From NCBI GenBank assembly GCA_035548815.1, contig DASZSF010000005.1, forward strand, positions 115,741-179,740: 64,000 nucleotides of DNA, in the 5' to 3' direction. The number at the start of each line of letters is the position of its first letter. Within the stretch, counting starts at the first letter, position 1. Positions 920 to 43,226 of the stretch are shown piece after piece. This DNA comes from Minisyncoccota bacterium. Lineage in GTDB: Bacteria > Patescibacteriota > Minisyncoccia > Phycocordibacterales > SBAW01. The position numbers and the translations under genes are program-made. The notes below the pieces were generated by a model. That model saw only the letters and a program-made list of their open reading frames with translations. It did no database searches and was not told the DNA's origin.

Positions 920-3900
920 ATGTTGTGGTTGTGGAACTTCTTCCTTGAACGTAAACAGTTCAGCTATGTGCTCATAGCGACGCTTGTTATCGCCGGTTTT
1001 TATGCGCTCGCAAAAATTCCAAAAGAAAATGCGCCGTCCATCATCATTCCAAACGGCATTGTAACCGCGGCACTTCCGGGCGCATCTGCTGAAGATATTG
1101 AGCGGCTTGTCACTAACAAGCTCGAAGACCAGATCTCGGGGCTTTCTAACCTAGACACAATTTCCTCAAACTCAAGCGATGGCGTCGCTGTAATAAACGT
1201 GCAGTTTAGCGCATCTGCTGATGTAACCCAGTCCATACAGGACTTGCGTGACGCTGTTGCTAAAGCCGTGCCGAACTTGCCGTCTGATGCGACAACGCCG
1301 CAGGTGAGCAAGGTAGACATTACCAATCAGCCCATTCTTGTTATTTCTATTTCTGGCGACCTGCCGCTGCCAGCATTTTCAGCACTTGGGACAGAAGTAT
1401 CCGATGAGTTGAAAGGCATTCCAGGAGTGTCTGAAGTTGATGTTGCTGGTGTGCCCGACCGCGAAGTTGATGTCATCGTCAGCAAAGAAAAACTCGAGCA
1501 GTACGGCTTGCGTTTGGTGGACATCATCGGCGCTATCTCTTCTGCAAACGCTGCGGCGCCTGCAGGCAGCATTTCGATAAACGGCGTTAACTATACGGTC
1601 AACTTTAAAGGCGGGATTGAAGATCCATCCGAGATCCAAAACATCGCGGTCGGCACCAAAACAGGCGTTCCCATTTATGTGCGTGATATTGCGGTTGTGT
1701 CCGACGGGTTAGCGCCTGCCCGAACATATTCGCGCCTTTCGCTTGCTGGAAAACCGAGCAATCAGGCAATGACGCTCATGGTCTTCAAACAATCTGGAGC
1801 AAGTGTGCAGGGAGTTGCGGATGCGTCAAAGAAAAAAATTGATGAGCTCAAAGCAACATCGCTCAAAGGGCTTGATGTGTTCATTTCGCCCTCAACAGAC
1901 CAGGGCGTGCAGGTTTCAAAACAATTAGGCGACTTGGCTGAAACAGGGCTTGAGACTGTCGTGCTCGTGCTCATTGTGTTGCTTGTAACTATCGGGTGGC
2001 GCGAGTCGGTCGTAGCCGGGCTCGCGATTCCGCTGTCGTTCCTCATCGCTTTCATCGGGCTCTACCTTACAGGCAATACGCTCAACTTTATCTCGCTCTT
2101 CGCGCTCATTTTGGCCGTGGGCATCTTGGTCGACTCAGGAATCGTTGTGACAGAGGCCATCCATGCGCGCCGGCCGCTTCATAAAGACTCTATGGATGCT
2201 GCACGCGCGGCGCTTCGCGACTACGCATGGCCGCTCATTGCAGGCACCATGGCAACAGTGGCTGTGTTCGCGCCGCTCTTCTTTATTTCCGGCATCGTCG
2301 GCAAATTCATTGCTGGCATTCCTTACACGCTCATCTTCGTGCTCTTGGCATCCATCTTCGTAGCGCTCGGCATTGTGCCAATAATCGCAGTGCTCTTTTC
2401 GTCGAGCCAGAAGCGAAATCGTCTGGAGGAAGCACAGGAACGATACACGGAAACTGCAACGCATTGGTACAAAGCAAAGCTGCGCACCATATTGGAAAGC
2501 GCTCGCGCACAGCGTCTCTTTTTGCGCGGCTTGGCTATCCTTTTCGTGCTTTCGCTCGCGCTGCCGTTTACGGGTCTTGTACAGACAACATTTTTCCCGC
2601 AGGATGACCAGGACTTCGTCTATATAAATATTCAAAAGCCGGAAGGCACGACGCTCTCACAGACAGACCTTGCGGTGCGTGAAGTTGAAGAGATCTTGTA
2701 CAAGAACCCTGACATCTCGTCGTTTGAAGCAACCGTAGGACAGAGCTCGGGGCTCACCGGTGCAGGCTCCTCGGGCAGCAATCAAGCGAACATTACCGTC
2801 AACCTGCCGCTTGGCCACAAAAAAACAAGCACTGAAATTTCAAATGAGCTGACAGGGCAGCTCGCGGTCGTGACCGATGCCACCGTGCAGGTGCTTCAGG
2901 CAAACAACGGTCCGTCGTCAGGCGCTCCAGTACAGATCCAGTTCAAGGGAGAAAATCTCGATGATTTAATAGTCGCGGCACAAGCAGGGAAGCGTATGCT
3001 TTCGACCATACCTCACGTGCAGAACATTACTGATACAACGCAGAACAACGGCACTGCGTTCGACCTGACAATAGACCGCGGCAAAGCAACAGCGCTTGGC
3101 CTTTCAACACAAATGGTCGCGCAGACATTGCGCGCGGCAATTCAAGGCACCAAGGCAACGAGCATTACACAGCCGCAAAAAGACATCGACGTCATTGTAA
3201 AGCTCAACCTGAACACTAACTACACCGACCCGTCGGACACATCCCGCACAACAATTGATGCAATAAAGAATCTTTCTATCCAAGGGAACAACGGCCCAGT
3301 GCTTTTGGGTTCTGTGTTGGCCGACACCTTGGGTCAAAGCAACGCAGCAATAGCACATAAAGATAAAGTCCGTATTGAAACAGTATCTGCATATCCTGAC
3401 GACAAGACGACAGCGACTGCGGTTGTTTCCGAATTCCAGAAACGAGAGAGCGAACTCAACCTTCCGCCGGGTGTTACTGTTTCGTACGGTGGTGAAACTG
3501 AAGACGTGAATCAGTCGTTCACCGAAATGTTCATCGCGCTCATTGCGGGGCTCGTGCTGATGTTCATGATTCTCATCATTTCGTTCAACTCTATCCGCCA
3601 CACGCTGCAGCTTTTGCTCATCGTACCGCTGTCGCTCATCGGCGTGCTTGATGGTTTGGCGCTCACCGGCCAGCCAGTGTCGTTTACTTCACTTCTTGGC
3701 ATCATCGCGCTTGGCGGCGTCATCATCAACCACGCCATCATCCTTATGGATTCGATGATCCATCAGTTGCATACGTACCCAGAGAAGTCCCTTGTCGATA
3801 TTGTCGTTGACTCATCCGCAACGCGTTTGCGCCCGATCGTGCTCACAACTATCACGACCGTTGTCGGTATGATTCCACTCGCGCTTTCAAACGCAACCTG

Positions 3901-4030
3901 GGGCCCGCTTGCGTATGCCGTCATGTTCGGCCTGGCCTTCGCTATCTGCCTGACGCTTGTGCTCGTGCCCGTACTCTTCTTCCGCTACTGGACCAACATC
4001 CGCGCGAAAAACGTGGCGGCTTCACGCTAG
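920..4030 (+). CDS. RND family efflux transporter permease (AcrB/HAE1-like), 1036 aa, 12 TM
   Basis: N-terminus FFLERKQFSYVLIATLVIAGFYAL..., two large periplasmic loops, paired TM bundles; length and motif layout typical of AcrB family; 7 nt after adaptor gene. Confidence 0.9.
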   Translation: MLWLWNFFLERKQFSYVLIATLVIAGFYALAKIPKENAPSIIIPNGIVTAALPGASAEDIERLVTNKLEDQISGLSNLDTISSNSSDGVAVINVQFSASADVTQSIQDLRDAVAKAVPNLPSDATTPQVSKVDITNQPILVISISGDLPLPAFSALGTEVSDELKGIPGVSEVDVAGVPDREVDVIVSKEKLEQYGLRLVDIIGAISSANAAAPAGSISINGVNYTVNFKGGIEDPSEIQNIAVGTKTGVPIYVRDIAVVSDGLAPARTYSRLSLAGKPSNQAMTLMVFKQSGASVQGVADASKKKIDELKATSLKGLDVFISPSTDQGVQVSKQLGDLAETGLETVVLVLIVLLVTIGWRESVVAGLAIPLSFLIAFIGLYLTGNTLNFISLFALILAVGILVDSGIVVTEAIHARRPLHKDSMDAARAALRDYAWPLIAGTMATVAVFAPLFFISGIVGKFIAGIPYTLIFVLLASIFVALGIVPIIAVLFSSSQKRNRLEEAQERYTETATHWYKAKLRTILESARAQRLFLRGLAILFVLSLALPFTGLVQTTFFPQDDQDFVYINIQKPEGTTLSQTDLAVREVEEILYKNPDISSFEATVGQSSGLTGAGSSGSNQANITVNLPLGHKKTSTEISNELTGQLAVVTDATVQVLQANNGPSSGAPVQIQFKGENLDDLIVAAQAGKRMLSTIPHVQNITDTTQNNGTAFDLTIDRGKATALGLSTQMVAQTLRAAIQGTKATSITQPQKDIDVIVKLNLNTNYTDPSDTSRTTIDAIKNLSIQGNNGPVLLGSVLADTLGQSNAAIAHKDKVRIETVSAYPDDKTTATAVVSEFQKRESELNLPPGVTVSYGGETEDVNQSFTEMFIALIAGLVLMFMILIISFNSIRHTLQLLLIVPLSLIGVLDGLALTGQPVSFTSLLGIIALGGVIINHAIILMDSMIHQLHTYPEKSLVDIVVDSSATRLRPIVLTTITTVVGMIPLALSNATWGPLAYAVMFGLAFAICLTLVLVPVLFFRYWTNIRAKNVAASR

Positions 4031-4072
4031 TGTTGATGACATTTGCGTGAAGGCTCCTATACTAGAAGCAGG

Positions 4073-4672
4073 ATGAATAAGCTACTTGGTATAGCATTAT
4101 TTTTTCTTGCACTTGTGAGTGTGCCTCATCTGTTGAGCGCTGATGATCCTATTCCCACTATTCCCAATGCCGGTACTATTACCGGAACACGTATTGCAAC
4201 GACAACTGCAGCAGTGCAGTCCAAAGCAGAAGTGAAAGCGCCACTTGTGCCGGTGCGCGTGCGCATTCCGGCAATTAAGCTCAACGATAGAATTGTCCCC
4301 GTTGGCAAGACAAAAGACGGCGCCATGGATGTGCCTTCGGGCAACACGAGCGATATTGGGTGGTACAAATATGGCACCACCCCGGGTGACGTGGGCAGTG
4401 CCGTATTTGATGCGCATGTCTTTGCCGCCTTGGCGAATCTCTACAAGCTCAAAGCCGGGGATGACATATACGTCATGATGTCCGACGGCACCGAGCGGCA
4501 CTTTGTCGTTGAGAAAAGTGTCGTCTACAAACTAGCCGACGTGCCTGCGGCAAAACTTTTTGCGCGCGATGACACAGAGCGTTTGAATTTGATTACCTGT
4601 GAGGGCAAGCTTACGCGCGATCATTCAACCTACGACCATCGTCGTGTGGTATACGCAACGCTCGTCCACTAA
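4073..4672 (+). CDS. sortase family transpeptidase
   Basis: N-terminal TM anchor MNKLLGIALFFLALVSV, catalytic-region motifs HV(F)... LNLITCEG ... R; C-terminal TLVH; class typical of small sortases. Confidence 0.8.
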   Translation: MNKLLGIALFFLALVSVPHLLSADDPIPTIPNAGTITGTRIATTTAAVQSKAEVKAPLVPVRVRIPAIKLNDRIVPVGKTKDGAMDVPSGNTSDIGWYKYGTTPGDVGSAVFDAHVFAALANLYKLKAGDDIYVMMSDGTERHFVVEKSVVYKLADVPAAKLFARDDTERLNLITCEGKLTRDHSTYDHRRVVYATLVH

Positions 4673-4929
4673 ACAGTTTTCTTTTGCCGTGCAAGATAGA
4701 GCGTTGCGGCGCCCGCAGCCAGTGCAGCAGCGCCAAGTGCGCTCCATGTTGCTAGTGCGTCACCACCAGCGCCCGTGTTCGGAACGCCTACCGTTGCACC
4801 GGTTGTATCAGTTGTGCTGGTAGTCGTGGTTGTTTGTGCGAGTGCAACACCCGAACCTGCTACAAGTAATGCGAGCGTTGCTGCGGCGCTTCCTGCAATT
4901 GCTTTGTAACGAATGTTTTGAAGAGTCAT
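4669..4929 (-). CDS. minimal sortase substrate: signal peptide + Thr-rich stretch + VPNTG sorting signal + hydrophobic tail + RQKK
   Basis: ATG at 4929 (MTLQNIRYKAIAGSAAATLALLVAGSGVALAQTTTTTSTTDTTGATVGVPNTGAGG...LYLARQKKTV); LPXTG-type tripartite sorting signal; convergent with sortase, stop codons overlap. Confidence 0.55.
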   Translation of the reverse strand: MTLQNIRYKAIAGSAAATLALLVAGSGVALAQTTTTTSTTDTTGATVGVPNTGAGGDALATWSALGAAALAAGAATLYLARQKKTV

Positions 4930-5067
4930 AGTGATATGTTCTAGCTCGTAAATGAACTCACGTAAGTATATGCACGCACTCCTGTAAGCAGGGTGAGGGA
5001 TGATTGACTCATCCAAAATTCTATTGTTGAGCTTGCTTCATCAAACCTACAGAATTATTATGTACGT

Positions 5068-5673
5068 ATGGATAATGACACGACAAAAAAAACTACTACT
5101 AAAAAAATGGAAGCGATTCCGTATTCTGCAATTGAAAGTGCCGTTGCAGAATTGCCGCCGCGCACCCGCACGCTGCGCTACATCGGTTCTGTAACGCGCA
5201 TGATGAACGAACGCGTGATTGGGCAGATCGAAAAAATGCTCGATAAAAACGCTGGCGAAGAGATCGCTTTGTTTATTACCTCGCCTGGGGGTGCCGCGGG
5301 CGTTGCCATGAGCTTTTATGACACCGTGCGGCACGTTTTAAAGCCAAGGCTCGTAACCATTGGCTCGGGCGAAGTCGACTCGTCAGGGATCATCGTTTTT
5401 TTGGCGGGGATGCGCCGTTTTGTTACGAAACGTACAACATTTTTGTTCCACCCCGCAGGCCGCATGTTTGGTAATCAGCGCTACACAACATCTGAAATGG
5501 CCGCAATGCTTGAAGAAGACCGCTTGAAAGATAAGCATTACGCGAGCGTTGTTGCGGAGAATTCAAAAGGAAAACTCACTGTCGAAGATGTACTCCTCAT
5601 GATGGAGCAACATACCGTTCTTTCTGCGGAAGATTTTGTTGCTGCGGGACTTGCTGATGACATCCTAGAATAG
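5068..5673 (+). CDS. ClpP-like serine peptidase (S14/ClpP-crotonase fold), non-canonical
   Basis: motifs ITSPGGAAG (cf. ClpP INSPGG), VDSSGIIVFLAG (Ser), LFHPAG (His) in ClpP order. Confidence 0.55.
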   Translation: MDNDTTKKTTTKKMEAIPYSAIESAVAELPPRTRTLRYIGSVTRMMNERVIGQIEKMLDKNAGEEIALFITSPGGAAGVAMSFYDTVRHVLKPRLVTIGSGEVDSSGIIVFLAGMRRFVTKRTTFLFHPAGRMFGNQRYTTSEMAAMLEEDRLKDKHYASVVAENSKGKLTVEDVLLMMEQHTVLSAEDFVAAGLADDILE

Positions 5674-5753
5674 TCGACTTAACTTTTCCTTAATGTGCAT
5701 GCCGCTACAGTATGCAGGTGGTCGATATTATTGAGCACCTAACGCAAACGTAT

Positions 5754-6005
5754 ATGGAAAACAACAATAATAATCGAAGTGGTCGCGGTTTTGCAGGTAT
5801 GGATCCGGACAAGCAGCGCGAAATTGCAAGCAAAGGCGGCAAAGCCGCACATGAAAAGGGCACAGCGCACGAGTTTGACTCGCAAGAGGCAGCAGAAGCG
5901 GGCGCAAAGGGAGGAAAAGCATCTCACTCAAACGATTCCAACCACAACGGTTCTAACCGTAACCAGGAACGCGACGAGGATGGACGCTTCATGGATGATG
6001 ATTAA
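5754..6005 (+). CDS. KGG-repeat general stress protein (YciG/Con-10 family)
   Basis: repeats SKGGKAAHEKG / GAKGGKASH, Asn/Asp-rich, no TM; start MENNNNN inside ORF 5712..6005. Confidence 0.6.
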   Translation: MENNNNNRSGRGFAGMDPDKQREIASKGGKAAHEKGTAHEFDSQEAAEAGAKGGKASHSNDSNHNGSNRNQERDEDGRFMDDD

Positions 6006-20726: not shown

Positions 20727-21764
20727 ATGACATTTCGCCGCATAGCTGCGCTCATCATCGCTCCTGCACTCGTAGTAGGGCTTCCTTTGTTTGCATTGGC
20801 ACAGAACGCCCCATACTCGCAGGTCATTATTTCCACACAGACTATCCCGGGAACTCCGGCACCGTCCATCGCGCCGATTGTCTACGTCAACGCGACGACT
20901 CCTTCAATGGCGGGAATACCGAATGTAAACAATTCGACCATCAGCTATGCGTCGGCATTTAACAACGATGTTCGTACAGTAACCTTCACTCCGGGCAGCT
21001 ACAATGTCGTTGCAACGGTTCCTGCGGGATACTACGCAAGCTACTCTCCAGACTGCACTGGCTTTACGCCGCTTTCAGGTGCTATCCGCAGCTGCACCAT
21101 ATTGCTTTCAAATGTCCCTCCGCAGACTGGTCCTGCATGCCCTCAGGGTTGGGTAAGCAACGGCAGTTTCTGCGTACAGCAAAATGTCCAGTACCAGGGC
21201 TCGACAGCTCCTTCGACCTTGAGCTGCGCACCAAGCTACCAGAGCATCGGCGCAGGACAGGCTGCTACCTTTACCGCAACTGGCGGCACGGGTTCGTATA
21301 ACTGGACGACTGCAACCCGCACGAGCTTAAACGTCGGCCCTTCATACACGACTGTCTTCCAGACTAGTGGGCCGCAGACGGTGATTGTTTCGAGCGGCAC
21401 TCAGACTGCAAACTGCACCATCACTGTTGGTTCAGTAAATGGTCCGATAACCTACTCTGGCTCGGGCACATACACGGGCGGCAACACGTACACGTACGCA
21501 AATGGCAATGGCAGCTACACCTACACGAGCGTTGCTCCTACCAACACAACTGTTGCTACGAACTACACGGGCCCAGTTGTTACCTACACGACTGTTTCGA
21601 ACAACCCTTCAGTAACTGCAAGCTACGTTCCTGCATCATTGCCGAACACTGGCTTTGAACCGCAAAACGGCGCTGCGCTTGCCCTTGCCCTTGTCTTCCT
21701 TATCGGTGCTTCTATCTTCGCTGCTCCGTATGTCCGACAAGCATTTGCTGTTGCCCTCCGCTAA
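20727..21764 (+). CDS. LPNTG-anchored surface protein (sortase substrate)
   Basis: signal peptide MTFRRIAALIIAPALVVGLPLFALAQ; Ig-like Thr/Ser-rich body; C-terminal LPNTG + hydrophobic + RQ. Confidence 0.7.
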   Translation: MTFRRIAALIIAPALVVGLPLFALAQNAPYSQVIISTQTIPGTPAPSIAPIVYVNATTPSMAGIPNVNNSTISYASAFNNDVRTVTFTPGSYNVVATVPAGYYASYSPDCTGFTPLSGAIRSCTILLSNVPPQTGPACPQGWVSNGSFCVQQNVQYQGSTAPSTLSCAPSYQSIGAGQAATFTATGGTGSYNWTTATRTSLNVGPSYTTVFQTSGPQTVIVSSGTQTANCTITVGSVNGPITYSGSGTYTGGNTYTYANGNGSYTYTSVAPTNTTVATNYTGPVVTYTTVSNNPSVTASYVPASLPNTGFEPQNGAALALALVFLIGASIFAAPYVRQAFAVALR

Positions 21765-21765
21765 G

Positions 21766-22428
21766 ATGGGCGTTCCTGTTACATCAACAACGCGCCGTGT
21801 GGGCGAATGGATTTTCATCGCGCTCGGTGCTGCAGCCGTACTCTATGGTCTCGTGAATGTGTTGTCTCGTATTTCAGATCGCCTTGATCTTGATTCAAGT
21901 GTCGTACAAACAGCCTTTGCGCCGCTTGGCACCCTGGGTACGAACTCGATATTGCCGCAAACTGCCACCAGCACGACGCCTATCATTCCGACGCGCATCG
22001 TTATTTCTTCGATCGGTGTAAATGCCGCAGTTGAACGCGTGGGTAAAAAGGCCGATGGCTCGATGGCAACCCCGTCGTCGTTTGAGACGACGGGTTGGTA
22101 TGAACTTGGAGCTAAGCCTGGTGAAGCAGGGAATGCAGTCATCGACGGCCACGTCAACAACGCACTCACGAAAGCGGGTGTGTTTGAACATCTCTCTGAC
22201 GTAAAAATAGGGGACACTATTGCCGTATCTGATGCGAGCGGCCGCACTCTTACCTTCGTGGTTTCTGAAACCGACCAATACAATACTGAAAGCGCTCCTG
22301 CGGCAGAGATCTTTACTGCCTCGGGCACATCACAGCTTGTGCTCATTACCTGCGACGGCCAGTGGGATGCCGCTGCGCACTCCTACGACAAGCGCTTTGT
22401 CGTCTACGCAAAGCTGACAACCCGGTAG
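21766..22428 (+). CDS. sortase family transpeptidase (second copy)
   Basis: TM anchor, HVNN... LVLITCDGQW ... R; paralogous to 4073..4672. Confidence 0.8.
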   Translation: MGVPVTSTTRRVGEWIFIALGAAAVLYGLVNVLSRISDRLDLDSSVVQTAFAPLGTLGTNSILPQTATSTTPIIPTRIVISSIGVNAAVERVGKKADGSMATPSSFETTGWYELGAKPGEAGNAVIDGHVNNALTKAGVFEHLSDVKIGDTIAVSDASGRTLTFVVSETDQYNTESAPAAEIFTASGTSQLVLITCDGQWDAAAHSYDKRFVVYAKLTTR

Positions 22429-32328: not shown

Positions 32329-33297
32329 GTGGCTAAGAAGAATAAAAAGAAAAACAAAGGGCCGCGCGACCAGCATTTTGTCCCGCGTTGTTATCTATCT
32401 GAATTCACCGATCCCAACACCCCTTTAGGCCAAGAGCCTTACGTGTGGGTGTTCGACAAGGACGGCAAGAATCCGCGTAAGCGGGCTCCTAAAAACGTAT
32501 TTACCGAGACCCATTTATATACCTTCGAGTTCAATGGTGAAAAGGATTTCTCCATGGAACAAAGTCTCTCTACTATCGAGGCCAAGTACGCATATATCTT
32601 TAGGCATAAAATCAAACAAAAGAAGCCTCTGACCGAAACGGAACACGCCTACCTATGTGCGTTCGTCGCGGCTCAGATGGTCCGTACGCCGCGCTTTAAG
32701 GAGAACCAAGAGAACTTCATCCAGCAGCTCATCGACCATGGCACTCAGATGGCGCTCGCGCACGGCGTAACCAATTCGCCGCAGGTGCGCCAGTGGCGGG
32801 AGTACAAAAAGGACGCACACAAGATCCAAATGGTGGATAGCATCCCGTACATCGCGAACATACTGCTGCAAATGAGCGTGGCATTTCTCTGCATCAAAGG
32901 TCCGAGCAAACACTGGTTCATTACTTCGGACGACCCTTGCGTATTTTTCAATCCGGATCTTCAATGGCAGCGGTTTTATGGCCCCGGCTTCGGTCAACAA
33001 AACGTGCAGCTCACACTCGCACTCAGTCCGGAGGTAACAGTGATGTTTACGTGGGCGAACTTTCGCGGCTACTCGTATGTGAGCGGCGGCAACGTCGAGA
33101 GTATGCTCAACCGTATGACACGCTTTCACTCAAACAAAGAATTTATATCTCCATACCCCAAGAAAAAGTGGGTCTGGTTTAGTCGCGTGCCGCTCGACCC
33201 GTTCTTCCTCTGGAAGGTAGTGAAGAATGAGACGAAAATACGGCTTCACAAGCTCCGCAACCGATGGCGCTACCGCAAAATGTATGCCAAACGATAA
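32329..33297 (+). CDS. DUF4238-family protein (Rst_DUF4238-type anti-phage defence candidate), GTG start
   Basis: N-terminal HFVPRCYLSEF matches DUF4238 signature; Lys-rich N-tail. Confidence 0.7.
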   Translation: MAKKNKKKNKGPRDQHFVPRCYLSEFTDPNTPLGQEPYVWVFDKDGKNPRKRAPKNVFTETHLYTFEFNGEKDFSMEQSLSTIEAKYAYIFRHKIKQKKPLTETEHAYLCAFVAAQMVRTPRFKENQENFIQQLIDHGTQMALAHGVTNSPQVRQWREYKKDAHKIQMVDSIPYIANILLQMSVAFLCIKGPSKHWFITSDDPCVFFNPDLQWQRFYGPGFGQQNVQLTLALSPEVTVMFTWANFRGYSYVSGGNVESMLNRMTRFHSNKEFISPYPKKKWVWFSRVPLDPFFLWKVVKNETKIRLHKLRNRWRYRKMYAKR

Positions 33298-34171
33298 CAT
33301 CGAACAAAATATAAAAGATATTGTCGAGTCTGGCGCGACCCCAGATGAGAAGATCTCCTCGCTTAACGACCTGATTGCGGGACTCAGCTTTGTGCATCAG
33401 GTCGCAGAAGCTCGACGTGTCGCGGAAGCAGGTGCGCTTATTGCTGCAAAGGCTGGTAAGACGGAAATGGCAGCACAATTTTGCTTTATGCGTGCAAAGG
33501 CGGAGATTGCAGAAGCAGGCAAATTCATCGGCGAGATGAAAAACATTACTATGGCGATCAACTGGTTCGAGTTCGGGCTTGAGGCAGAGAAAAAACGATT
33601 TAAAGAACTTGATGCAAAACTGCAAACCAACTGGGGCATCACTCAAAAGGTTATGAATATGGGGTATGATTTTATCAATAAAAAACCCTACATTGGCGCT
33701 GGTGCTTATTGCCAGCGAACCGCCGGACAGATATATGGCACTTATTACCTCCAGCTAAAGCTACACTATTTCACAACCGGTCATCCGTGGCGCGCGCGTT
33801 TCGGGAATTATGCGCTGTCTCGTTGGGTCGGCATAGATGACTTGTTCATTCTCAGTAAGAAATCTCGCGCTCACCTGCGAAGTGTTAAACGAGACTGTCT
33901 CAAGTCTCTCCATCAAGCAAAGCGTCTGTTTAAACAAATAAAAGCATATGATTACCTTGTTGAGACATACTTTGACCTCGCGCTGGAACACCATTCATTC
34001 AATGACTCTCTCCGCAGTAAGTTTTATCTCTGGTGGGGATGGTTGTTAATGAAATGGCACCGACTTCAGGAGCCACGCCTCGCAGAAAGCTTCGCGTCAC
34101 TTCGCGAATTGCCACTCATCGGAAGCAATCGTGACGGCAGACCTATGGATGAGCTGCAACCGCAGCTGTAA
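33284..34171 (+). CDS. hypothetical alpha-helical protein translationally coupled to DUF4238 gene
   Basis: ATG 33284 overlaps upstream stop by 14 nt; 295 aa, no recognisable domain. Confidence 0.5.
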   Translation: MPNDNIEQNIKDIVESGATPDEKISSLNDLIAGLSFVHQVAEARRVAEAGALIAAKAGKTEMAAQFCFMRAKAEIAEAGKFIGEMKNITMAINWFEFGLEAEKKRFKELDAKLQTNWGITQKVMNMGYDFINKKPYIGAGAYCQRTAGQIYGTYYLQLKLHYFTTGHPWRARFGNYALSRWVGIDDLFILSKKSRAHLRSVKRDCLKSLHQAKRLFKQIKAYDYLVETYFDLALEHHSFNDSLRSKFYLWWGWLLMKWHRLQEPRLAESFASLRELPLIGSNRDGRPMDELQPQL

Positions 34172-34175
34172 TCTT

Positions 34176-35543
34176 CTAATTGTCTTGGTCTATCGTCACA
34201 ATTCCTTTTGTGATTTTGAGCTTTGATTTGAAACATCCCATCAACTCGCGCTTCTCCTGGTCCGTCCCTTCCTTCAGCGTGTACTTCGCATAGGTTTTGA
34301 GATCTACTTCGTCGTGCGTTTTTGAGGCGCTGGACATACCCAACACTGCTCGTTGGAATTTGTTAAAGCGCTTTAGCTCTTCCTCAAACTTGTGCTGAAT
34401 GCCGATGCCATTGAGGTCGATTTGGTCGAGTGCTTTTATCATCTGGTCGATTAGTTCCTCCTCGCGCAGGTAGGTATTCTTGCAGTGCAGATTACGCGCT
34501 CGCCCGCAGCCGTAATAGATATACTTTCGCATCGTACCGTCTTTGAGCTGTTTGTACTTTTCCTCCGCGCTGAACATTGATCCGCACAGTCCGCAGGTGA
34601 CGAGCTTGGTAAACGCGAACTCGTGGCTTTGGCGCACAATGCTATCGCGCTTGAGTTGGGCCTGCACCGCATCAAAGAGTTCTTTGGTGATGAGCGGCTC
34701 GTGCTTGCCCTGATACCAATTGCCGGAGTTTTTCGGGTACTCGAACGTGCCGTAATAGAAATGATTGGTGAGCGTGCGATATACGTTGCCGCAGGTAAGC
34801 GGCTTGTTGCCGGTTGTATGAAAGTTTAAGTCGAACCTAAGCCAGTGGTAGACGCGACGGCCCGACCACTTTTCGTAAGCAACCTTCTCAAACATTTTCT
34901 TGATAACTGGTCCTCGCTCCGGATCGACAATCACCTGACATTTTTTGTCCATCATTTTTTGTGTCAGATATCCAGTGGGCGGCGTAGTTGGCCACAAGCC
35001 CATTTCGACCCTCGTTCGCAAACCGCGCTTAACATTGATTCCACGATTATCGTTTTCGAGCTTCGCTTGTGACCCGAGAATCATCAACAGGAACTTCTCG
35101 TTCGGGTTATTGCGGAAGCTCTGGCTGTATGTCCGAATTTCCTGCAAGCCTCCGGAGTCCATCAAATCCACGACCTTGCCGAGGTCGCCTGCGTTGCGCG
35201 AAATTCTATCAGCTGCCCATGTCAAAATTCCGTTGTATTTGCCAGCTTTGATCTCCTCGATAACTTCATTGAAGACTGGTCGCTGACCCGTCTCTTTTGC
35301 AGAGTGCGATTCGCGCTTCATCGCGACCACCTCTAGGCCTTCTCGCTCGGAGAGCTGTAGCATTTCCTTTATCTGCGAATCAATCGAAAGCACCTGTCGC
35401 TCTTCCGATTCGGTGCTCTTTCTCGCATAGAGGCAATACCTCACTTTTACCGCCTCTGGTACGACCTGTTTGCCAATAATACCCACGGCCCTTGTTGTAG
35501 TTTCCATACCCCAAGGGATGACGCTGACGCCTATGGGAGTCAA
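34176..35543 (-). CDS. large serine recombinase (resolvase/integrase family with recombinase domain and zinc ribbon)
   Basis: catalytic region YARKSTESEERQVLSIDSQ, ...RISRN; C-terminal CGLCGS...YYGCGRARNLHC. Confidence 0.85.
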   Translation of the reverse strand: MTPIGVSVIPWGMETTTRAVGIIGKQVVPEAVKVRYCLYARKSTESEERQVLSIDSQIKEMLQLSEREGLEVVAMKRESHSAKETGQRPVFNEVIEEIKAGKYNGILTWAADRISRNAGDLGKVVDLMDSGGLQEIRTYSQSFRNNPNEKFLLMILGSQAKLENDNRGINVKRGLRTRVEMGLWPTTPPTGYLTQKMMDKKCQVIVDPERGPVIKKMFEKVAYEKWSGRRVYHWLRFDLNFHTTGNKPLTCGNVYRTLTNHFYYGTFEYPKNSGNWYQGKHEPLITKELFDAVQAQLKRDSIVRQSHEFAFTKLVTCGLCGSMFSAEEKYKQLKDGTMRKYIYYGCGRARNLHCKNTYLREEELIDQMIKALDQIDLNGIGIQHKFEEELKRFNKFQRAVLGMSSASKTHDEVDLKTYAKYTLKEGTDQEKRELMGCFKSKLKITKGIVTIDQDN

Positions 35544-35595
35544 GAGCGTCCCCAGAACCTAGCTGTTGGTAACTTAAACAAGCTGGAGCCTATAT

Positions 35596-36123
35596 TTAAA
35601 GATTCTTCAATATAAAATCTGCCCGCTCTTCCGGCGGCAGTACAGGCACGTGTACAACCGGTGATGGCAGTGATTCATAAACTTCAGTAATGAAGTCGTG
35701 GATTTGCTTCTGTGCGGCCGCGTCTTCGGTGCGGGCGTAGTCATTCACTAGCGGCAATGGATCTAAAATGAAAACCTTTTTATATGATGCCTTCCTCATC
35801 GCCAACAGGATTTTGCCGTCTTCGGGGAGATTAGTAAATCGATAATATGCTAAAGCGTCAGGGATTGCCCGATCAAGAAAAACGACTTCGTTCGGTGAAA
35901 GTTCCCGCTCTTGTGCGATCTGCATACCAAGCACACCTTGCTGAAAAGCCAGCTGGTTTTGCCTAATCTCTTCTACAGTTTTACCCGTGATTCGTTGTGT
36001 ATCAATAAAATGCCGTGCATGCTCAATCGTGGTCTTGTAGCCACGTTCTTTGAGAAGGTTTACCGTAGTTGTCTTACCGGAGCCCGGGCCTCCAGTTATT
36101 ACGTACCAGTTCGTTGCGTCCAT
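35596..36123 (-). CDS. P-loop NTPase / predicted kinase (AAA_28/NadR-like)
   Basis: Walker A ITGGPGSGKTT, Walker B VVFLD. Confidence 0.55.
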   Translation of the reverse strand: MDATNWYVITGGPGSGKTTTVNLLKERGYKTTIEHARHFIDTQRITGKTVEEIRQNQLAFQQGVLGMQIAQERELSPNEVVFLDRAIPDALAYYRFTNLPEDGKILLAMRKASYKKVFILDPLPLVNDYARTEDAAAQKQIHDFITEVYESLPSPVVHVPVLPPEERADFILKNL

Positions 36124-36392
36124 TAGCCGATTTTATGTGATCCACTCCAGTTATAGCAATGCGCGAAGCAATATCCCAATACAAAACCAAAAATGACACT
36201 GGCAATAATGCCTTCAACCCACGCCTGTACTGAACCAAGAGGGGCGGCCGTGAACAGAGCGAGCCACATATGTGTGAACTGTGCCCCAGGCAAAATAATC
36301 TGTGCAATGGCACATAGTACGAACGCGACAACCAAGGTGCCAGCGAGTGCGATACCAGTCCGAACCGTCGACAATCGAGTAATGTTTTCCAT
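36123..36392 (-). CDS. small 2-TM membrane protein
   Basis: 89 aa hydrophobic; start overlaps kinase. Confidence 0.4.
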   Translation of the reverse strand: MENITRLSTVRTGIALAGTLVVAFVLCAIAQIILPGAQFTHMWLALFTAAPLGSVQAWVEGIIASVIFGFVLGYCFAHCYNWSGSHKIG

Positions 36393-36424
36393 AAAATTTA
36401 TTAATTTCTAAATAATGTCGGCAA

Positions 36425-36553
36425 CTACTTCTTAGAAATCTGCTGCCAGAGCCAGATTCCCACTAGCACTAGATCAACGAGGACAACAATCCACGTGAGT
36501 AGGCCGAAGACACCTGCGCCGCCCATCATCCCCTCATATCCATAACCCATCAT
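36425..36553 (-). CDS. tiny glycine-zipper membrane peptide (42 aa), below ORF-track cutoff
   Basis: MMGYGYEGMMGGAGVFGLLTWIVVLVDLVLVGIWLWQQISKK read from minus strand. Confidence 0.25.
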   Translation of the reverse strand: MMGYGYEGMMGGAGVFGLLTWIVVLVDLVLVGIWLWQQISKK

Positions 36554-36624
36554 AATATGTAATTGTTATTTTTTTAATAATCTCGACCTAAGCACATGGT
36601 ACCGCTGACGGCCACTTTACACAA

Positions 36625-36641
36625 ATACCCCATGGGGGTAT
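36625..36641. promoter_or_regulatory. CsoR operator (GC-rich pseudo-palindrome) 10 nt upstream of csoR
   Basis: ATACCCC-ATG-GGGGTAT near-perfect inverted repeat, resembling known CsoR operators (TACCC...GGGTA). Confidence 0.6.
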
Positions 36642-36650
36642 CATAAGGTC

Positions 36651-36923
36651 ATGAAAGTAGACGCGAAAAGAAAGGTACTCCGTCGCCTCAGTCTAATCCG
36701 GGGCCAACTCAACGGCCTTATCAAAATGGTAGATGCTGAACGCTACTGCGTCGACATCATTACGCAATCGAGCGCGATTAAGGAGGCACTTTCAGGAGTG
36801 GAAGACGTCATGCTCGAAAACCATCTCACGACGCACGTTATAGACCAGATCAAATCAGGGAGGAGTAAGAAGGCGGTCGAAGAGATATTGAAAGTTTATA
36901 AGTTAGCACAAAAGAAAAAGTGA
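36651..36923 (+). CDS. csoR: copper-sensing repressor CsoR (CsoR/RcnR DUF156 family)
   Basis: VLRRLSLIRGQLNGLIKMVDAERYCVDIITQSSAIKEAL...HLTTH; conserved Cys and His ligands. Confidence 0.85.
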   Translation: MKVDAKRKVLRRLSLIRGQLNGLIKMVDAERYCVDIITQSSAIKEALSGVEDVMLENHLTTHVIDQIKSGRSKKAVEEILKVYKLAQKKK

Positions 36924-36924
36924 T

Positions 36925-37131
36925 ATGAAAAATACCACCGTGCGTTGGGTAATTATTGGTCTACTTATAGTCGCAGGAGTTTATCTCGCTGTTGACCACG
37001 GTCAGCATATTGCGCCCTATTTGCCATTTGCTTTTTTGTCAGGCTGCCTTTTTATGCACCTGTTCGGCCACGGAGCACATGGTCATCATGGGAACCATGG
37101 CGGGCATGAGCATGAAGACGCAAAACAATGA
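36925..37131 (+). CDS. DUF2933-like small membrane protein with His-rich tail (metal-resistance associated)
   Basis: TM then CLFMHLFGHGAHGHHGNHGGHEHED. Confidence 0.5.
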   Translation: MKNTTVRWVIIGLLIVAGVYLAVDHGQHIAPYLPFAFLSGCLFMHLFGHGAHGHHGNHGGHEHEDAKQ

Positions 37132-37967
37132 AAAATATTTTAATCACCAAAGCATCTGGCGAACGTGAGGCATTTTCGGAGTCGAAATTGCGCCGCTCTC
37201 TACAGCGCGTGCACGCACCTTCAAATCTTGTAGACGAAATCGTCGCCCAGATCGAGACTGAATTGAGCGAAGGTATGAATACGTCGGAGATATATCGGAA
37301 AGCGTTTTCTCTGCTCAGGAAAAAAGCGAGACCTGTCGCGGCACGCTACAGTCTTAGAAGCGCACTAATGGAATTGGGACCGACCGGCAGGCCATTCGAG
37401 CGCTTTGTGGGTGAGCTTTTGAAGTCGGAGGGATTTGCCGTAGAAGTAGCGAAGATTGTGCCAGGAGTCTGCATCAAGCATGAAGTTGATGTCGTCGGCA
37501 CCAAAGGAGATCGACATATTATGGTGGAATGCAAATTTCATAATCAACCCGGATTGCGATCGGACGTAAAAATATCGCTCTATGTACAGGCTCGATTTGA
37601 GGATATCGAGCGCCAATGGAAGAAACAACTGCATCACGGAGAGAAATTCCACGAAGTATGGCTTGTCACTAATACGAAACTTACTTCTGATGCCACTGAT
37701 TATGCGAAATGCGTCGGGATGCATGCTATTGGCTGGAATTATCCTGCCACTGGCAGCTTGGAAGAGCTAATTGAGCAGCATAATCTCCATCCTTTGACAT
37801 GTCTAACGCGTCTGAATCGTTTACAGAAACAAGAACTTTTAAAACAAGGGCTCATTCTTTGCACTGATCTCCTAGAGGAACGAGACACTTTGCAGAAAAT
37901 TGTTGGAACTTCCGTGCGTGTAGATGAAATAGTGCAAGAGGTAAAGAAGCTACTAAAAATCGTATGA
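37128..37967 (+). CDS. ATP-cone domain fused to Mrr-like (restriction endonuclease-fold) nuclease domain
   Basis: N-terminal KASGEREAFSESKLRRSLQRV (ATP-cone); central ERFVGELLKSEGFAVEVAKIVPG...HEVDVVGTKGDRHIMVECKFH (Mrr_cat D-x-E-x-K). Confidence 0.65.
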   Translation: MKNILITKASGEREAFSESKLRRSLQRVHAPSNLVDEIVAQIETELSEGMNTSEIYRKAFSLLRKKARPVAARYSLRSALMELGPTGRPFERFVGELLKSEGFAVEVAKIVPGVCIKHEVDVVGTKGDRHIMVECKFHNQPGLRSDVKISLYVQARFEDIERQWKKQLHHGEKFHEVWLVTNTKLTSDATDYAKCVGMHAIGWNYPATGSLEELIEQHNLHPLTCLTRLNRLQKQELLKQGLILCTDLLEERDTLQKIVGTSVRVDEIVQEVKKLLKIV

Positions 37968-38226: not shown

Positions 38227-40428
38227 ATGAATCACGACGACCACAAAAATCACAAACACAGAGCCCATGGCATGGAGCAATACACCTGCCCGATGCATCC
38301 TGAAGTAATAAAACATGAGCCGGGCAAATGTCCGGGATGCGGCAAGGATTTGATTCCCAAGGAAAAGGGGGTAGGCGGTGAACATGCCGGGCACGATATG
38401 TCGAAAATGAGCCACATGGATCACGAGGCAGCGATGACGAACCCACAGATGGCGAAGGCAATGGAGGCCGATATGCGCCGCCGGTTCTGGATTTCATTCG
38501 TACTCTCGATACCCATTTTCTTGTATTCGCCCGTCGGCGTGAACCTGTTGAAGCTCCATCTGCCCGCGCCGATACCGGTCAGCTGGATACTCTTCATCCT
38601 CACGACACCGATAGTTTTCTGGACCGGCTCCATATTCATCACGGGCACGTACTACTCGCTCAAAGCCAAGAAGCTCAACATGGCGGTCTTGATCGCGACA
38701 GGCGTCCTTGCCGCGTACCTCTTTAGCGTGCTTCTCACGCTGATACAGCCTGCGAGCGAGACGTTCTACGAAGCCGCCGCGCTTCTTGTCACCTTCGTTC
38801 TTTTTGGGCATTGGATGGAGATGAAATCCCGCAAAGGCACATCGGACTCGCTCCGAGCCCTCTTTGATCTGGTACCGCCTCAGGCCCGAGTCATCCGCGA
38901 CGGAAAAGAGATGAGCATACCGAGCGCGGAAATAATCAAGGGGGACGTCGTCGTGTTGCGTCCTGGCGACAAAGTGCCGGTTGACGGAGAAATCATTGAG
39001 GGTGATTCATCGATCGATGAATCACTTGTGACCGGCGAATCCATCCCTGTCTCGAAGGCGAAAGGAGACAAAATAGTGGGAGGTTCGGTCAACCTCACCG
39101 GCGCGGTGCAATTCAAGGCGACAAAAGTCGGCGCGGATACTGTCTTGGCACAGATCATCAAGATGGTAGAGACTGCACAGAACTCCAAAGCGCCCGGGCA
39201 GCGTATCGCCGACAAGGCTGCCGCCATTCTGGTGGTGGTCGCCATTGGCTCCGGACTTGCCGCATTCTTTGGCTGGTATTTCTTCGGAGGTGCGGGACTT
39301 CTCGCCGCCCTTACCTTTGCCGTATCGACTGTTGTCATTGCATGCCCTGATGCATTAGGGCTCGCGACGCCAACAGCCGTTGCGGTGGGCACCGGCTTGG
39401 GTGCCAAGCACAACATTCTCATCAAAGATGCCGCAACGCTTGAAAATACTTCCAAACTCAATGCTATCGTGCTTGATAAGACAGGTACGCTCACCGAAGG
39501 GAAACCGAAAGTAACCGAGGTTGTTTCCACAAATTCTTATACCAAAGAGGACGTGCTTGCATACGCGTCTGCCGTTGAGCGGAACTCGAATCATCCCATT
39601 AGTCTCGCGATTATCAACGAAGCATCGAAGCGTAGCGTGTCCATCGAGAAGAAAGTCGAGAAATTTGAATCAATCGGCGGTCATGGCGTGCGTGCTGTTG
39701 CCGATGGCAAGACGGTCATTGCGGGCACTGAGCGCTTGATGAAGCAAAGCACTATTGATCTCTCACCACTCAAAAAGGAAATCGACCGTCTGCTTGGCAC
39801 AGGCAACACCATCAGCATCGTCGCGATTGACGGCAAGGTGGCGGGTGCCATCGGCGTCGCAGACACGGTACGTGAATCCGCACAGAAAACAGTATCCAAA
39901 CTAAAAGATATGGGTTTGGAAGTCGTCATGATCACTGGCGATCACGAACAGGTCGCTAAGGCAGTTGCAGGACAGCTTGGGATTGAACGCTACTTCGCAC
40001 AAGTGCTTCCTGAGGAGAAAGCGAAGTACGTGAAGAAGTTGCAAGACGAAGGTAAAAACGTAGCAATGGTCGGTGACGGCATCAACGATGCACCTGCCTT
40101 GGCGCAATCCGATATCGGCATCGCGATTGGTGCAGGCACCGACGTCGCCATCGAGACCGGCAACATCGTCCTGATGAAGTCCGATCCTTACGACATCGTG
40201 GCCGCCATCCGATTGTCTAAAGCAACTGTCACGAAGATGAAACAGAATCTATTTTGGGCTGCTATCTACAATGTTCTCGCAATTCCCGTGGCCGCAGGAG
40301 TTTTCTACTCAAGCTTGGGTTGGTCATTGCGACCTGAAATTTCCGCACTCCTCATGTCCGCTTCCTCAATCATCGTTGCTACAAACGCGGTTCTGCTCAA
40401 ACGGGTGGAGCCGCGCTTGAAGGAATGA
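38227..40428 (+). CDS. copA: heavy-metal (probably copper) P1B-type ATPase; TM6 motif CPD instead of CPC; N-terminal TRASH/YHS-like CPMHP...CPGCG
   Basis: TGES, IACPDALGLATP, DKTGTLT, GDGINDAPAL, 8 TM. Confidence 0.9.
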   Translation: MNHDDHKNHKHRAHGMEQYTCPMHPEVIKHEPGKCPGCGKDLIPKEKGVGGEHAGHDMSKMSHMDHEAAMTNPQMAKAMEADMRRRFWISFVLSIPIFLYSPVGVNLLKLHLPAPIPVSWILFILTTPIVFWTGSIFITGTYYSLKAKKLNMAVLIATGVLAAYLFSVLLTLIQPASETFYEAAALLVTFVLFGHWMEMKSRKGTSDSLRALFDLVPPQARVIRDGKEMSIPSAEIIKGDVVVLRPGDKVPVDGEIIEGDSSIDESLVTGESIPVSKAKGDKIVGGSVNLTGAVQFKATKVGADTVLAQIIKMVETAQNSKAPGQRIADKAAAILVVVAIGSGLAAFFGWYFFGGAGLLAALTFAVSTVVIACPDALGLATPTAVAVGTGLGAKHNILIKDAATLENTSKLNAIVLDKTGTLTEGKPKVTEVVSTNSYTKEDVLAYASAVERNSNHPISLAIINEASKRSVSIEKKVEKFESIGGHGVRAVADGKTVIAGTERLMKQSTIDLSPLKKEIDRLLGTGNTISIVAIDGKVAGAIGVADTVRESAQKTVSKLKDMGLEVVMITGDHEQVAKAVAGQLGIERYFAQVLPEEKAKYVKKLQDEGKNVAMVGDGINDAPALAQSDIGIAIGAGTDVAIETGNIVLMKSDPYDIVAAIRLSKATVTKMKQNLFWAAIYNVLAIPVAAGVFYSSLGWSLRPEISALLMSASSIIVATNAVLLKRVEPRLKE

Positions 40429-40488
40429 GTCGTACCCGGTCGAGGTACGATGAAGGTAGAGATTAAAAAAAAATAAACCAATCAACAT

Positions 40489-40707
40489 ATGAAATTCTCA
40501 AAATTAATGCATGTAGCCAGCGTTGTAGTGGGGTTTGCAGGCGTGTTCGTGTTCATCGTTACCGTTGTCGGGGGCGATGCTAACATCTTCGGTATTACAA
40601 AAATGGACGCACTCGCTTGTGCCGCCATTCTTATACTCATCGCAACTTGGACTCAGATCGCGACTATCCATCACATGATGCTTGAACGCAAAGGTGAACT
40701 TATCTAG
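40489..40707 (+). CDS. small membrane protein
   Basis: 72 aa, 2 TM. Confidence 0.35.
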   Translation: MKFSKLMHVASVVVGFAGVFVFIVTVVGGDANIFGITKMDALACAAILILIATWTQIATIHHMMLERKGELI

Positions 40708-40709
40708 CC

Positions 40710-41354
40710 ATGTGCTTCTCGGCCACAGCAAGCTTCGTAGCAGGTGGAACGTTGTCGGCAGCAGGGGCTCTTACTCTTACTCAAGCGAAAACTAAGAAAG
40801 AGCTCCCATTCGCCGCAATACCGCTCTTGTTTGGCGTGCAACAGACTATCGAAGGATTCGTGTGGCTCTCATTCGGCTCTGCATTCTGGAATGTCGCACT
40901 GACATACGCGTACTCGATGTTCTCGCACGTATTGTGGCCGATATTCGTTCCCATTTCAGTTTTGCTACTAGAGACAGACCCAACCCGAAAGAAGATCCTG
41001 CGATCCTTTTCGGTTATTGGTGCGGCGGTGGGACTATACCTTCTATACTTCATCATCGTTGATCCGGTGACGGCGCATGTCGTTAACCACAGCATCGCGT
41101 ATCACTCGCCGCACTTTTATGCTCTTCCGACAATGTTTCTTTATTTGATCGCGACATGTGGTAGCTGTCTTGCGTCGAGCCATAAAATCATCAAAGTGTT
41201 CGGGGTCGTGCTTCTTACTTCGTTCGCTATCGCCGCGTGGTTCTACACCGAAACATTCTTCTCGGTTTGGTGTTTCTTCGCAGCAATTCTTAGCGTTATC
41301 GTCTGCTGGTATTTCAGGAATAAAAATATGCAAAAATCTCACGTTTCGGTATAA
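40710..41354 (+). CDS. hypothetical 6-TM membrane protein
   Basis: 214 aa hydrophobic. Confidence 0.45.
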   Translation: MCFSATASFVAGGTLSAAGALTLTQAKTKKELPFAAIPLLFGVQQTIEGFVWLSFGSAFWNVALTYAYSMFSHVLWPIFVPISVLLLETDPTRKKILRSFSVIGAAVGLYLLYFIIVDPVTAHVVNHSIAYHSPHFYALPTMFLYLIATCGSCLASSHKIIKVFGVVLLTSFAIAAWFYTETFFSVWCFFAAILSVIVCWYFRNKNMQKSHVSV

Positions 41355-41361
41355 TCGATCT

Positions 41362-41772: not shown

Positions 41773-41812
41773 GTAGGCACTCCTCGCCGCGTCATTCGTC
41801 GCGGATTATTCG

Positions 41813-42547: not shown

Positions 42548-42551
42548 ACCT

Positions 42552-43214: not shown

Positions 43215-43226
43215 CTAAATAACATT

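Follow-up and report, generated by a model that had tools for sequence, protein, structure and literature searches.

A stretch of 64,000 nucleotides from a Minisyncoccota bacterium (contig DASZSF010000005.1, positions 115,741 to 179,740; referred to below as the window) contains two convergent genes at its positions 4073-4929, one for a sortase and one for a protein of 86 amino acids. The small open reading frame (ORF) is probably translated as a sortase substrate that has no domain, with the convergent class-F-like sortase as its dedicated partner, and a short peptide rich in hydroxyl groups would thereby be joined to peptidoglycan. The small ORF is a genuine gene under purifying selection; its architecture is that of a whole family, its adjacency to a sortase gene is conserved, and the sortase has an intact catalytic triad and fold. 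What is new with respect to Pfam, NCBIfam and the literature searched is a large family of domain-less substrates that has an extended sorting signal of its own, is restricted to Patescibacteria and is coupled in an orientation-specific manner to two class-F-like sortase subtypes. A sortase-substrate system is of a known kind, and conceptually this one departs only modestly from what is known, unless the readings of bulk wall modification or of regulation considered below hold.

The convergent gene pair

The sortase ORF (4073-4672, + strand, 199 amino acids; Pfam Sortase, E=1.3e-16) extends from an ATG at 4073 to a TAA at 4670-4672, and the small gene (4669-4929, - strand), named 'hypothetical protein' by NCBI, extends from an ATG at 4929 to a TAG that is the reverse complement of 4669-4671. 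The overlap is 4 nucleotides, and the two stop codons (TAA/TAG) have 2 nucleotides in common. The preliminary description of this DNA had reported a sortase convergent with an 86-amino-acid ORF, with overlapping stop codons, and its coordinates and architecture were confirmed in every detail.

The small protein can be divided into a signal peptide, a mature peptide and a sorting-signal end (MTLQNIRYKAIAGSAAATLALLVAGSGVALA / QTTTTTSTTDTTGATVGVPNT / GAGGDALATWSALGAAALAAGAATLYLARQKKTV). The signal peptide (residues 1-31; 4837-4929, - strand) has the n-region MTLQNIRYK, an h-region and a predicted cleavage site ALA/Q, after which comes the predicted mature peptide QTTTTTSTTDTTGATVGVPNT (4774-4836, - strand), 21 residues that include 12 Thr and no Lys. 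The sorting motif VPNTG (residues 49-53; 4771-4785, - strand) would be cut between Thr52 and Gly53, as expected from sortase biochemistry, and the post-cleavage segment (4672-4773, - strand) comprises GAGGDA, a membrane helix and the tail ARQKKTV. The C-terminus thus has the tripartite layout of an LPXTG anchor: VPNTG, a 25-residue segment rich in Ala, Gly and Leu, and RQKKTV. Its score with TIGR01167 is 14.9 bits against a cutoff of 15.9, it does not match PF00746 at E<=0.01, and it has no Pfam or NCBIfam match above cutoff; the near-miss and the absent match account for the 'hypothetical' annotation.

A six-frame scan of the 64-kb window found xPxTG followed by a hydrophobic stretch and a basic tail in two ORFs only, each of which abuts a sortase ORF. 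Because both signal-bearing ORFs of the window abut sortases and the small ORF has hundreds of relatives built in the same way, the pairing is not attributable to chance.

Scans for promoters, terminators and Shine-Dalgarno sequences gave weak or negative signals throughout. A weak promoter-like site (4036-4063, + strand; ATGACA-16-TATACT, 10/12), found by its match to the consensus, is located just 5′ of the sortase start; if used, this weak candidate would leave the sortase mRNA with a very short leader or none. No Shine-Dalgarno-like sequence was found within 20 nucleotides of the start of the small gene at nine loci (window positions 4930-4970 and eight relatives, 40 nucleotides upstream of each). 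The upstream regions at these nine loci are A/T-rich, some with TATTAT-like boxes at 15-27 nucleotides, which together with the missing Shine-Dalgarno sequence suggests short-leader or otherwise Shine-Dalgarno-independent initiation.

The small ORF was called as a gene by NCBI and by two other sources. Its coding character is evident from three contigs of relatives that encode the same 74-amino-acid protein: locus L008 is separated from L009 and L010 by 12-13 synonymous codon changes and by no non-synonymous one. When the window gene is set against its syntenic ortholog at locus L023, the codons of the C-terminal block are 10 identical, 12 synonymous and 11 non-synonymous, a pattern much like that of the two sortase genes (51 identical, 59 synonymous, 89 non-synonymous). 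The Thr codons of the small gene are mixed (ACA/ACC/ACG/ACT) and do not form a simple repeat. The preliminary description would have been undermined by an ORF that is not conserved or has no coding signature; instead, relatives conserve the ORF and close ones diverge at synonymous sites only.

A spurious frame opposite an intergenic or low-complexity region would be compatible with the lack of a Pfam or NCBIfam match above cutoff, with the missing Shine-Dalgarno sequence, and with the choice of the opposite strand by the gene caller in assembly GCA_029288895.1. However, hundreds of homologs keep the modules, the gene keeps its place beside a sortase across two different gene orders, and neither the synonymous-only divergence of close relatives nor the mixed Thr codons would be expected of such a frame. 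Conservation, divergence and adjacency together effectively refute this explanation, to which we assign almost no probability.

The sortase

The window sortase scores 60.9 bits with PF04203 (cutoff 26.6) and so belongs to the sortase superfamily. It has an N-terminal membrane anchor (residues 1-~22) and a catalytic domain (residues ~60-199) in which His115 (codon cat, 4415-4417), Cys176 (codon tgt, 4598-4600, in LITC, a motif of the TLxTC type) and Arg190 (codon cgt, 4640-4642), all on the + strand, are invariant in alignments of 8 and of 40 sequences. An AlphaFold2 model made with 40 homologs has a predicted local distance difference test score of 86 overall and ~95 over residues 60-199. In a Foldseek search of the PDB, every one of the top 50 matches listed was a sortase (E 3e-9 to 1e-7; ~20% identity; template modelling scores of ~0.5-0.6; probability 1.00), and classes C, E, A and D matched about equally well. 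Model and matches agree with the eight-stranded beta-barrel of the sortase fold. A single-sequence search of the PDB with the window sortase found no match, and a profile search reached distant class C, D and E sortases only (best E=4.8e-7), there being no class F structure for comparison.

NCBI names the enzyme 'class F sortase'. The NCBIfam model for class F (NF033748) scores 107 bits on it, against 22 bits for the next class, and is the best model for all nine sortases tested (99-145 bits, against at most 40 for any other class); none of them reaches the cutoff of 166, and they are therefore termed divergent and class-F-like rather than certified class F. The window sortase belongs to the second of two subtypes described below, with DAHVFAA, a deletion of 6 residues after the catalytic His, and ITCEGKLTRDHSTYDHR.

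The juxtamembrane linker of the sortase itself contains a pentapeptide that resembles a sorting signal (IPNAG, residues 30-34; 4160-4174, + strand), comparable to VPNTG in the partner substrate. The linkers of 38 of 86 full-length homologs (P0164-P0283) contain a motif xP[NDEQS]T[GASN], at a median distance of 12 residues from the membrane anchor, where shuffling of the linkers would lead one to expect 5.3. The linker pentapeptide is IPDAG at L023, PPDTG at L024 and L026, and APNTG at L038, and VPNTA also occurs among the homologs. The motif may be a pseudo-substrate lid or a site of self-cleavage.

Substrate family and extended sorting signal

A word-indexed search found 15 relatives of the small protein, 70-96 amino acids long and composed of the same three modules. 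A profile built from these first relatives and searched against 1.84 billion cluster representatives matched 541 clusters (50% identity) at E<=1e-3. Of these, 169 reach E<=1e-10, and lengths among the best 150 run from 60 to 138 amino acids. Family statistics were computed from 163 pooled sequences and a motif-anchored alignment of 161 clusters. The motif xPxTG is located 18-45 residues from the C-terminus in 161/163 sequences and a signal-peptidase site A-x-A/Q is present in 160/161, proportions that measure how often the search patterns were satisfied, as these preset the P, T and G of the motif and the Gln at +1.

The motif-anchored consensus begins T-T-P-G-[V47/T24/A19%]-P-N(84%)-T-G-A(73)-G(99)-G(88)-[D53/N13/E9] and continues A-A-x-N(73)-x-L-L-L(80)-G-x-S(62)-A-...-G(72)-x-x-Y(74)-L(80)-x-R(69)-R. 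Leu occupies the first motif position in only 7 of the 161 clusters, and V, T or A in about 90%. Position-specific conservation after the cut extends over AGG[DN], N12, L16, S19, G26, Y29, L30 and R32 (counted from the first motif residue), although the conservation of the helix is inflated by the choice of the 161 sequences with a profile that includes it. Against the LPXTG anchor models, no more than 5 of 16 members attain E<=0.1. The family has no entry in Pfam or NCBIfam, and literature searches on the motif, on sortases of the candidate phyla radiation (CPR) and on class F yielded no description of it.

The predicted mature part, in contrast, is conserved in composition only (38% Thr, 12% Gly, 11% Ser, 10% Pro); it varies in length (median 23 residues, range 10-76) and has no other conserved feature. 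Lys is found in only four cases, the mature parts of 156 of 160 members having none. This bears on whether the product could be a polymer, the peptide being joined head to tail into a Thr-rich fibre through the amine of its N-terminal Gln, or a peptide of ~21 residues that is released or cyclised. Gln at +1 in 160/161 members would suit such chemistry, and class C polymerases are among the Foldseek matches, alongside other classes. N-terminal Gln tends, however, to cyclise to pyroglutamate, and the amine would then be blocked. Other secreted proteins of the window (encoded at 20727, 52129 and 16885) have Gln at +1 too, so it may be a habit of the lineage. Moreover, a Lys nucleophile is missing from nearly all mature regions, there is no pilin motif or immunoglobulin-like domain, the class C hidden Markov model scores only 14.8 bits on the sortase, and the variability of length and composition is unlike that of signalling peptides. 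We consider a polymer or released peptide very improbable. A minimal pilin, one of the roles entertained in the preliminary description, is rejected on similar grounds: the 21-residue mature peptide has neither a Lys nor a folded domain, and its sortase does not belong to class C.

All named matches to the family come from Patescibacteria (Paceibacterota, Adlerbacteria, Minisyncoccia and 'Parcubacteria group'). Two Lysobacter matches in the genome scan were discarded as chance occurrences of PNTGAGGDA inside a GH18 chitinase.

A search with the 40-residue consensus sorting signal alone returned two candidates, too few to show without bias how long the proteins with this signal are. Larger proteins bear the same signal, namely a cupredoxin-like protein of at least 204 amino acids at L016 and proteins of at least 327 amino acids at L033 and L037, none of which adjoins a sortase gene. 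The sharing of the signal by larger passengers indicates that it is general for this sortase clade, the domain-less proteins being those that are tied to the enzyme genes. A Tyr/Gly-rich passenger of ~100 residues (…YYYGNGTYYD…GGSV…) recurs with the PNTGAGGD signal at L015 (2695-3144), L041 and L043/L044; at L015 it has both sortase subtypes on its flanks.

Coupling of substrate genes to two sortase subtypes

Genomic context was compared for six homologs found through a contig index, 28 further loci that pattern scans located in GTDB genomes and JGI metagenomes, and three loci reached through homologs of the window sortase; the locus pattern was derived from a 7-sequence subset of a 16-sequence alignment. 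In all 23 distinct loci with enough flanking sequence, a sortase ORF is located within about 80 nucleotides of the low-complexity substrate (at L024, which has two substrates in tandem, of 168 and 108 amino acids, it is the proximal one that is so placed). The gaps between substrate and sortase range from -29 to +69 nucleotides.

Two sortase subtypes can be distinguished. Those of subtype I (GHVDNGLGLxGVF...ITCxGxW) are always encoded on the same strand as the substrate and directly downstream of it, while those of subtype II (DAHVFAA with the 6-residue deletion, ITCxGKLTxDxSTYDHR) are always convergent with it, namely in the window and at L023, L024, L026 and L038. Since every subtype II locus is convergent, the convergent layout is a conserved trait; the overlap of stop codons is not. 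At L015, both subtypes flank a substrate of 149 amino acids. A proposed co-variation of the sortase subtype with the post-cleavage residues (Trp versus Asn) was found to be inconsistent, Asn being combined with subtype II at L024, L026 and L038.

The closest parallel to the window is L023 (GCA_029288895.1, JARIGK010000004.1), where the order AcrB-sortase-substrate-ClpP is preserved with the substrate gene in the same place and orientation. The ortholog (4656-5003, - strand) has 115 amino acids and the signal TPNTGLGGDA, and the length of its Thr/Gly spacer is more than double (50 versus 21 residues). It is unannotated in that assembly, in which an 85-amino-acid ORF on the opposite strand was called as the gene. 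In CPR genomes at large, gene callers probably overlook a share of the low-complexity Thr/Gly genes of this family.

In one sub-clade (L003, L007, L012/L013, L014, L020, L025), the small substrate and its sortase are found in a neighbourhood that comprises a GT4 glycosyltransferase, an alpha/beta hydrolase, a GT2 glycosyltransferase, a PAP2 protein, the substrate, the sortase and a convergent MASE1 hybrid histidine kinase. BacA takes the place of PAP2 at L012/L013. The swap of two unrelated undecaprenyl-pyrophosphate phosphatases in one slot hints at a functional coupling to the lipid-carrier cycle.

This neighbourhood is relevant to a refinement of the proposal made at the outset, in which the Thr run would be O-glycosylated outside the cytoplasm from sugars linked to undecaprenyl phosphate, and the sortase would fix the resulting mini-mucin to the wall. 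A mature region with 38% Thr and 11% Ser, of no fixed length and without other conserved features, would suit a carrier of glycans. In six distinct subtype I loci (L003, L007, L012, L014, L020, L025), a GT2 glycosyltransferase is nearby; in all of these except L025, PAP2 or BacA is encoded directly upstream of the small gene, and GT4 is found further upstream at L007, L012 and L025. By analogy, glycosylated sortase substrates have a precedent in Actinomyces oris GspA, which is anchored by a sortase and glycosylated by LcpA (PMC6381275), and O-glycosylated Thr-rich clusters beside a C-terminal sorting signal may be compared in haloarchaeal S-layer proteins (PMC6098224). On the other side, only one sub-clade has the GT2/PAP2 neighbourhood, which may reflect no more than synteny; neither the subtype II loci (window, L023, L024) nor L008-L011 have it, and no glycosyltransferase, GT-C or LytR-CpsA-Psr (LCP) enzyme was found among the 36 window ORFs scanned with Pfam. 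Glycan carriage is accordingly a possibility worth keeping, with odds clearly below even. The preliminary description had suggested a glycosylation target, for which the GT2 and undecaprenyl-pyrophosphate phosphatase genes near some relatives speak and the content of the window does not.

The neighbourhood is also relevant to the question of which product is functional. Alternatively, the functional product might be the C-terminal fragment retained in the membrane or the processing itself, the small protein serving as a substrate with a regulatory or 'placeholder' role. It might maintain the sortase in a charged state, adjust cross-linking by using up the acceptor amines of lipid II, or give rise to a GAGGD-helix peptide that is sensed by a membrane kinase. 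The C-peptides of Streptococcus gordonii, which are sensed by a membrane kinase, are a precedent. The strongest position-specific conservation is found after the cut (73-99% for AGG, then the helix positions listed above), the anchored part being conserved only in composition; a hybrid histidine kinase with a MASE1 membrane sensor is encoded directly downstream, convergent to the sortase, at L003, L007, L012, L014 and L020, and nearby at L025; and the small substrates adhere to sortase genes, unlike the large proteins with the same signal at L016, L033 and L037. Yet no kinase adjoins the window pair or its syntenic relatives, the conserved helix may be merely what this sortase clade recognises, and its conservation is inflated by the profile selection already noted. 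A function of the retained fragment or of processing appears improbable to us.

Proposed function

Anchoring of the mature peptide to the wall is the preferred explanation, by steps that follow established sortase biochemistry. The precursor would be exported by Sec and cut by signal peptidase I after Ala31 (ALA), baring the N-terminal Gln, and would be kept in the membrane by its C-terminal helix and RQKK tail. Cys176 of the sortase would then attack the Thr52-Gly53 bond of VPNTG, the GAGGD-helix fragment would stay in the membrane, and the thioacyl intermediate would be resolved by the free amine of a lipid II stem peptide. The 21-residue QTTTTTSTTDTTGATVGVPNT would end up covalently attached to peptidoglycan as a peptide of about 7 nm at full extension without a folded head, a hydroxyl-rich and perhaps O-glycosylated 'brush'. 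The absence of a fold, a reach of no more than ~7 nm, conservation of composition only and the drift in length (21 versus 50 residues) argue that the wall itself is modified, as opposed to a protein being displayed on it.

Several considerations weigh against wall anchoring by this enzyme. Cleavage at both sites, peptidoglycan as the acceptor, the choice of the acting sortase and any glycosylation are inferred, and the acceptor amine and peptidoglycan are themselves presumed in this organism. The two genes are convergent and therefore not co-transcribed, and since a subtype I sortase is co-transcribed with the substrate in most relatives, the adjoining subtype II sortase may not be the sole or the true processing enzyme. 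The glycosylation part is weak, as no glycosyltransferase or LCP gene turned up among the 36 ORFs of the window that were scanned. The location of the strongest constraint in the membrane-retained part could mean that the function resides elsewhere than in the anchored peptide.

The reading as a minimal sortase substrate or cell-wall-anchored peptide, first suggested in the preliminary description, is supported by how the protein is built, by its conservation and coding signature, and by the sortase gene that always adjoins it in relatives. That description did not extend to the size of the family, its restriction to Patescibacteria and its distinctive extended signal, to the longer passengers that share this signal, or to the tie of convergence to one sortase subtype.

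A broader extrapolation is that Patescibacteria use dedicated class-F-like sortases, instead of for protein display, to graft a Thr-rich ribosomally made (glyco)peptide of ~10-50 residues onto peptidoglycan in bulk, as a gene-encoded wall polymer in place of teichoic-acid-like decoration, with regulation built in through the precursor helix and the substrate-mimicking linker motif of the sortase. We regard this extrapolation as doubtful, less probable than glycan carriage.

A second sortase-substrate pair

The second signal-bearing ORF of the window (20727-21764, + strand) encodes a secreted protein of 345 amino acids with LPNTG, a hydrophobic stretch and an Arg tail, and without a Pfam domain. 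Its sortase (21766-22428, + strand, 220 amino acids; class-F-like, 134 bits) is co-directional and starts 2 nucleotides past the substrate stop codon; the linker of this sortase contains LPQTA at residues ~63-67, versus LPNTG in its substrate. The different signals of the two pairs (VPNTG-AGGD and LPNTG-FEPQ) argue for dedicated pairing. The preliminary description had cited a sortase/LPNTG pair at 20727-22428 as confirming that the system is in use; the pair is real, and together with the intact His115, Cys176 and Arg190 of the first sortase it supports such use.

Other features of the window

Directly 5′ of the first sortase gene are genes for an HlyD-type membrane-fusion protein (17-913) and an AcrB/RND pump of 1036 amino acids (920-4030) in what is presumably a monoderm CPR organism; the HlyD/AcrB-sortase synteny is retained in a 62%-identical relative (L023, 1-3937). 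On the other side, a ClpP-like protease (5068-5673) and a KGG stress protein (5712-6005) directly adjoin the pair and are syntenic in relatives.

A secreted protein of 1686 amino acids (53768-58828, + strand) with a C1q domain (E=2.5e-6), unusual in bacteria, and Gly_rich_2 is possibly a large adhesin or resembles a tail fibre. It is followed by a class A beta-lactamase-family protein (58829-59815) and preceded by a Peptidase_A4 protein (52129-53043) with the signal peptide site AFA/QTS, Gln at +1 being recurrent in several secreted proteins of the organism. A copper-handling cluster (38227-45255) encodes a heavy-metal P-type ATPase with HMBD, a DUF6629 protein, a DsbA-like thioredoxin and a three-domain multicopper oxidase. 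A candidate mobile or defence island (32329-37967 and 46513-49917) encodes a DUF4238 protein, a large serine recombinase (34176-35543, - strand), a restriction-endonuclease-like protein with ATP-cone and Mrr_cat, a 590-amino-acid protein of no family and an N6/N4 DNA methylase.

Significance and comparison with known systems

Sortases are enriched in CPR/Patescibacteria (PMC6744442), and what class F enzymes do physiologically is listed as unknown to date (PMC13251363). The substrates of CPR sortases are uncharacterised, and since these organisms live attached to other cells, the covering of their walls matters for host recognition. The locus defines a large 'hypothetical' family (541 clusters) whose extended signal and strict link to two sortase subtypes provide a simple annotation rule. 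It also supplies a candidate peptide substrate (TTPGVPNTGAGGDA) for the biochemistry of class-F-like sortases and, in muropeptides bearing QT..PNT, a concrete target for mass spectrometry of CPR enrichments.

The class F prototype, SrtF of Propionibacterium/Cutibacterium acnes, is similar in its His-Cys-Arg triad, N-terminal membrane anchor and size of ~200 amino acids. That enzyme is a housekeeping sortase for LPXTG (PMC8225981), whereas each sortase described here adjoins one substrate with the motif [V/T/A]PNTG-AGG[D/N]. The signal shares with the canonical LPXTG signal (TIGR01167/PF00746) the tripartite layout of pentapeptide, hydrophobic helix and basic tail, with 29-41 residues after TG, but differs in the rarity of Leu at position 1 (7/161), the conservation of TPG before and AGG[D/N] after the motif, and the position-specific conservation of the helix. 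A novel CPR pilus described in a 2026 preprint, with immunoglobulin-like donor-strand pilins, is unlike this system.

The GspA-SrtA-LcpA system of Actinomyces oris is alike in that a sortase substrate apparently carries glycan to the wall, the modifying enzyme being encoded beside GspA (PMC6381275). In contrast, the window pair has no LCP gene nearby, the CPR proteins are of much smaller size and lack any folded part, and their glycosylation is hypothetical. The long chaplins of Streptomyces are small wall-anchored proteins that confer a bulk surface property rather than a binding domain (PMC8225981), and SspA of Actinoplanes is described as a small or disordered sortase E substrate with a bulk surface role akin to that proposed for this family (PMC13293333). 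Chaplins, however, have a hydrophobic amyloid-forming domain of ~40 amino acids with two Cys, the signal LAXTG and class E sortases, whereas this family is hydrophilic and Thr-rich; the small protein of the window is free of Cys, hydrophilic and without a Pfam match, and is not a chaplin.

PGF-CTERM and PEP-CTERM proteins likewise have a low-complexity, hydroxyl-rich stretch just before a C-terminal sorting signal, which is O-glycosylated in haloarchaeal S-layer glycoproteins (PMC6098224). Those systems differ in having unrelated archaeosortase or exosortase enzymes and signals, and in attachment to lipid instead of peptidoglycan. Dedicated gene pairs of an archaeosortase or exosortase and its target have reportedly been described in the work of Haft.

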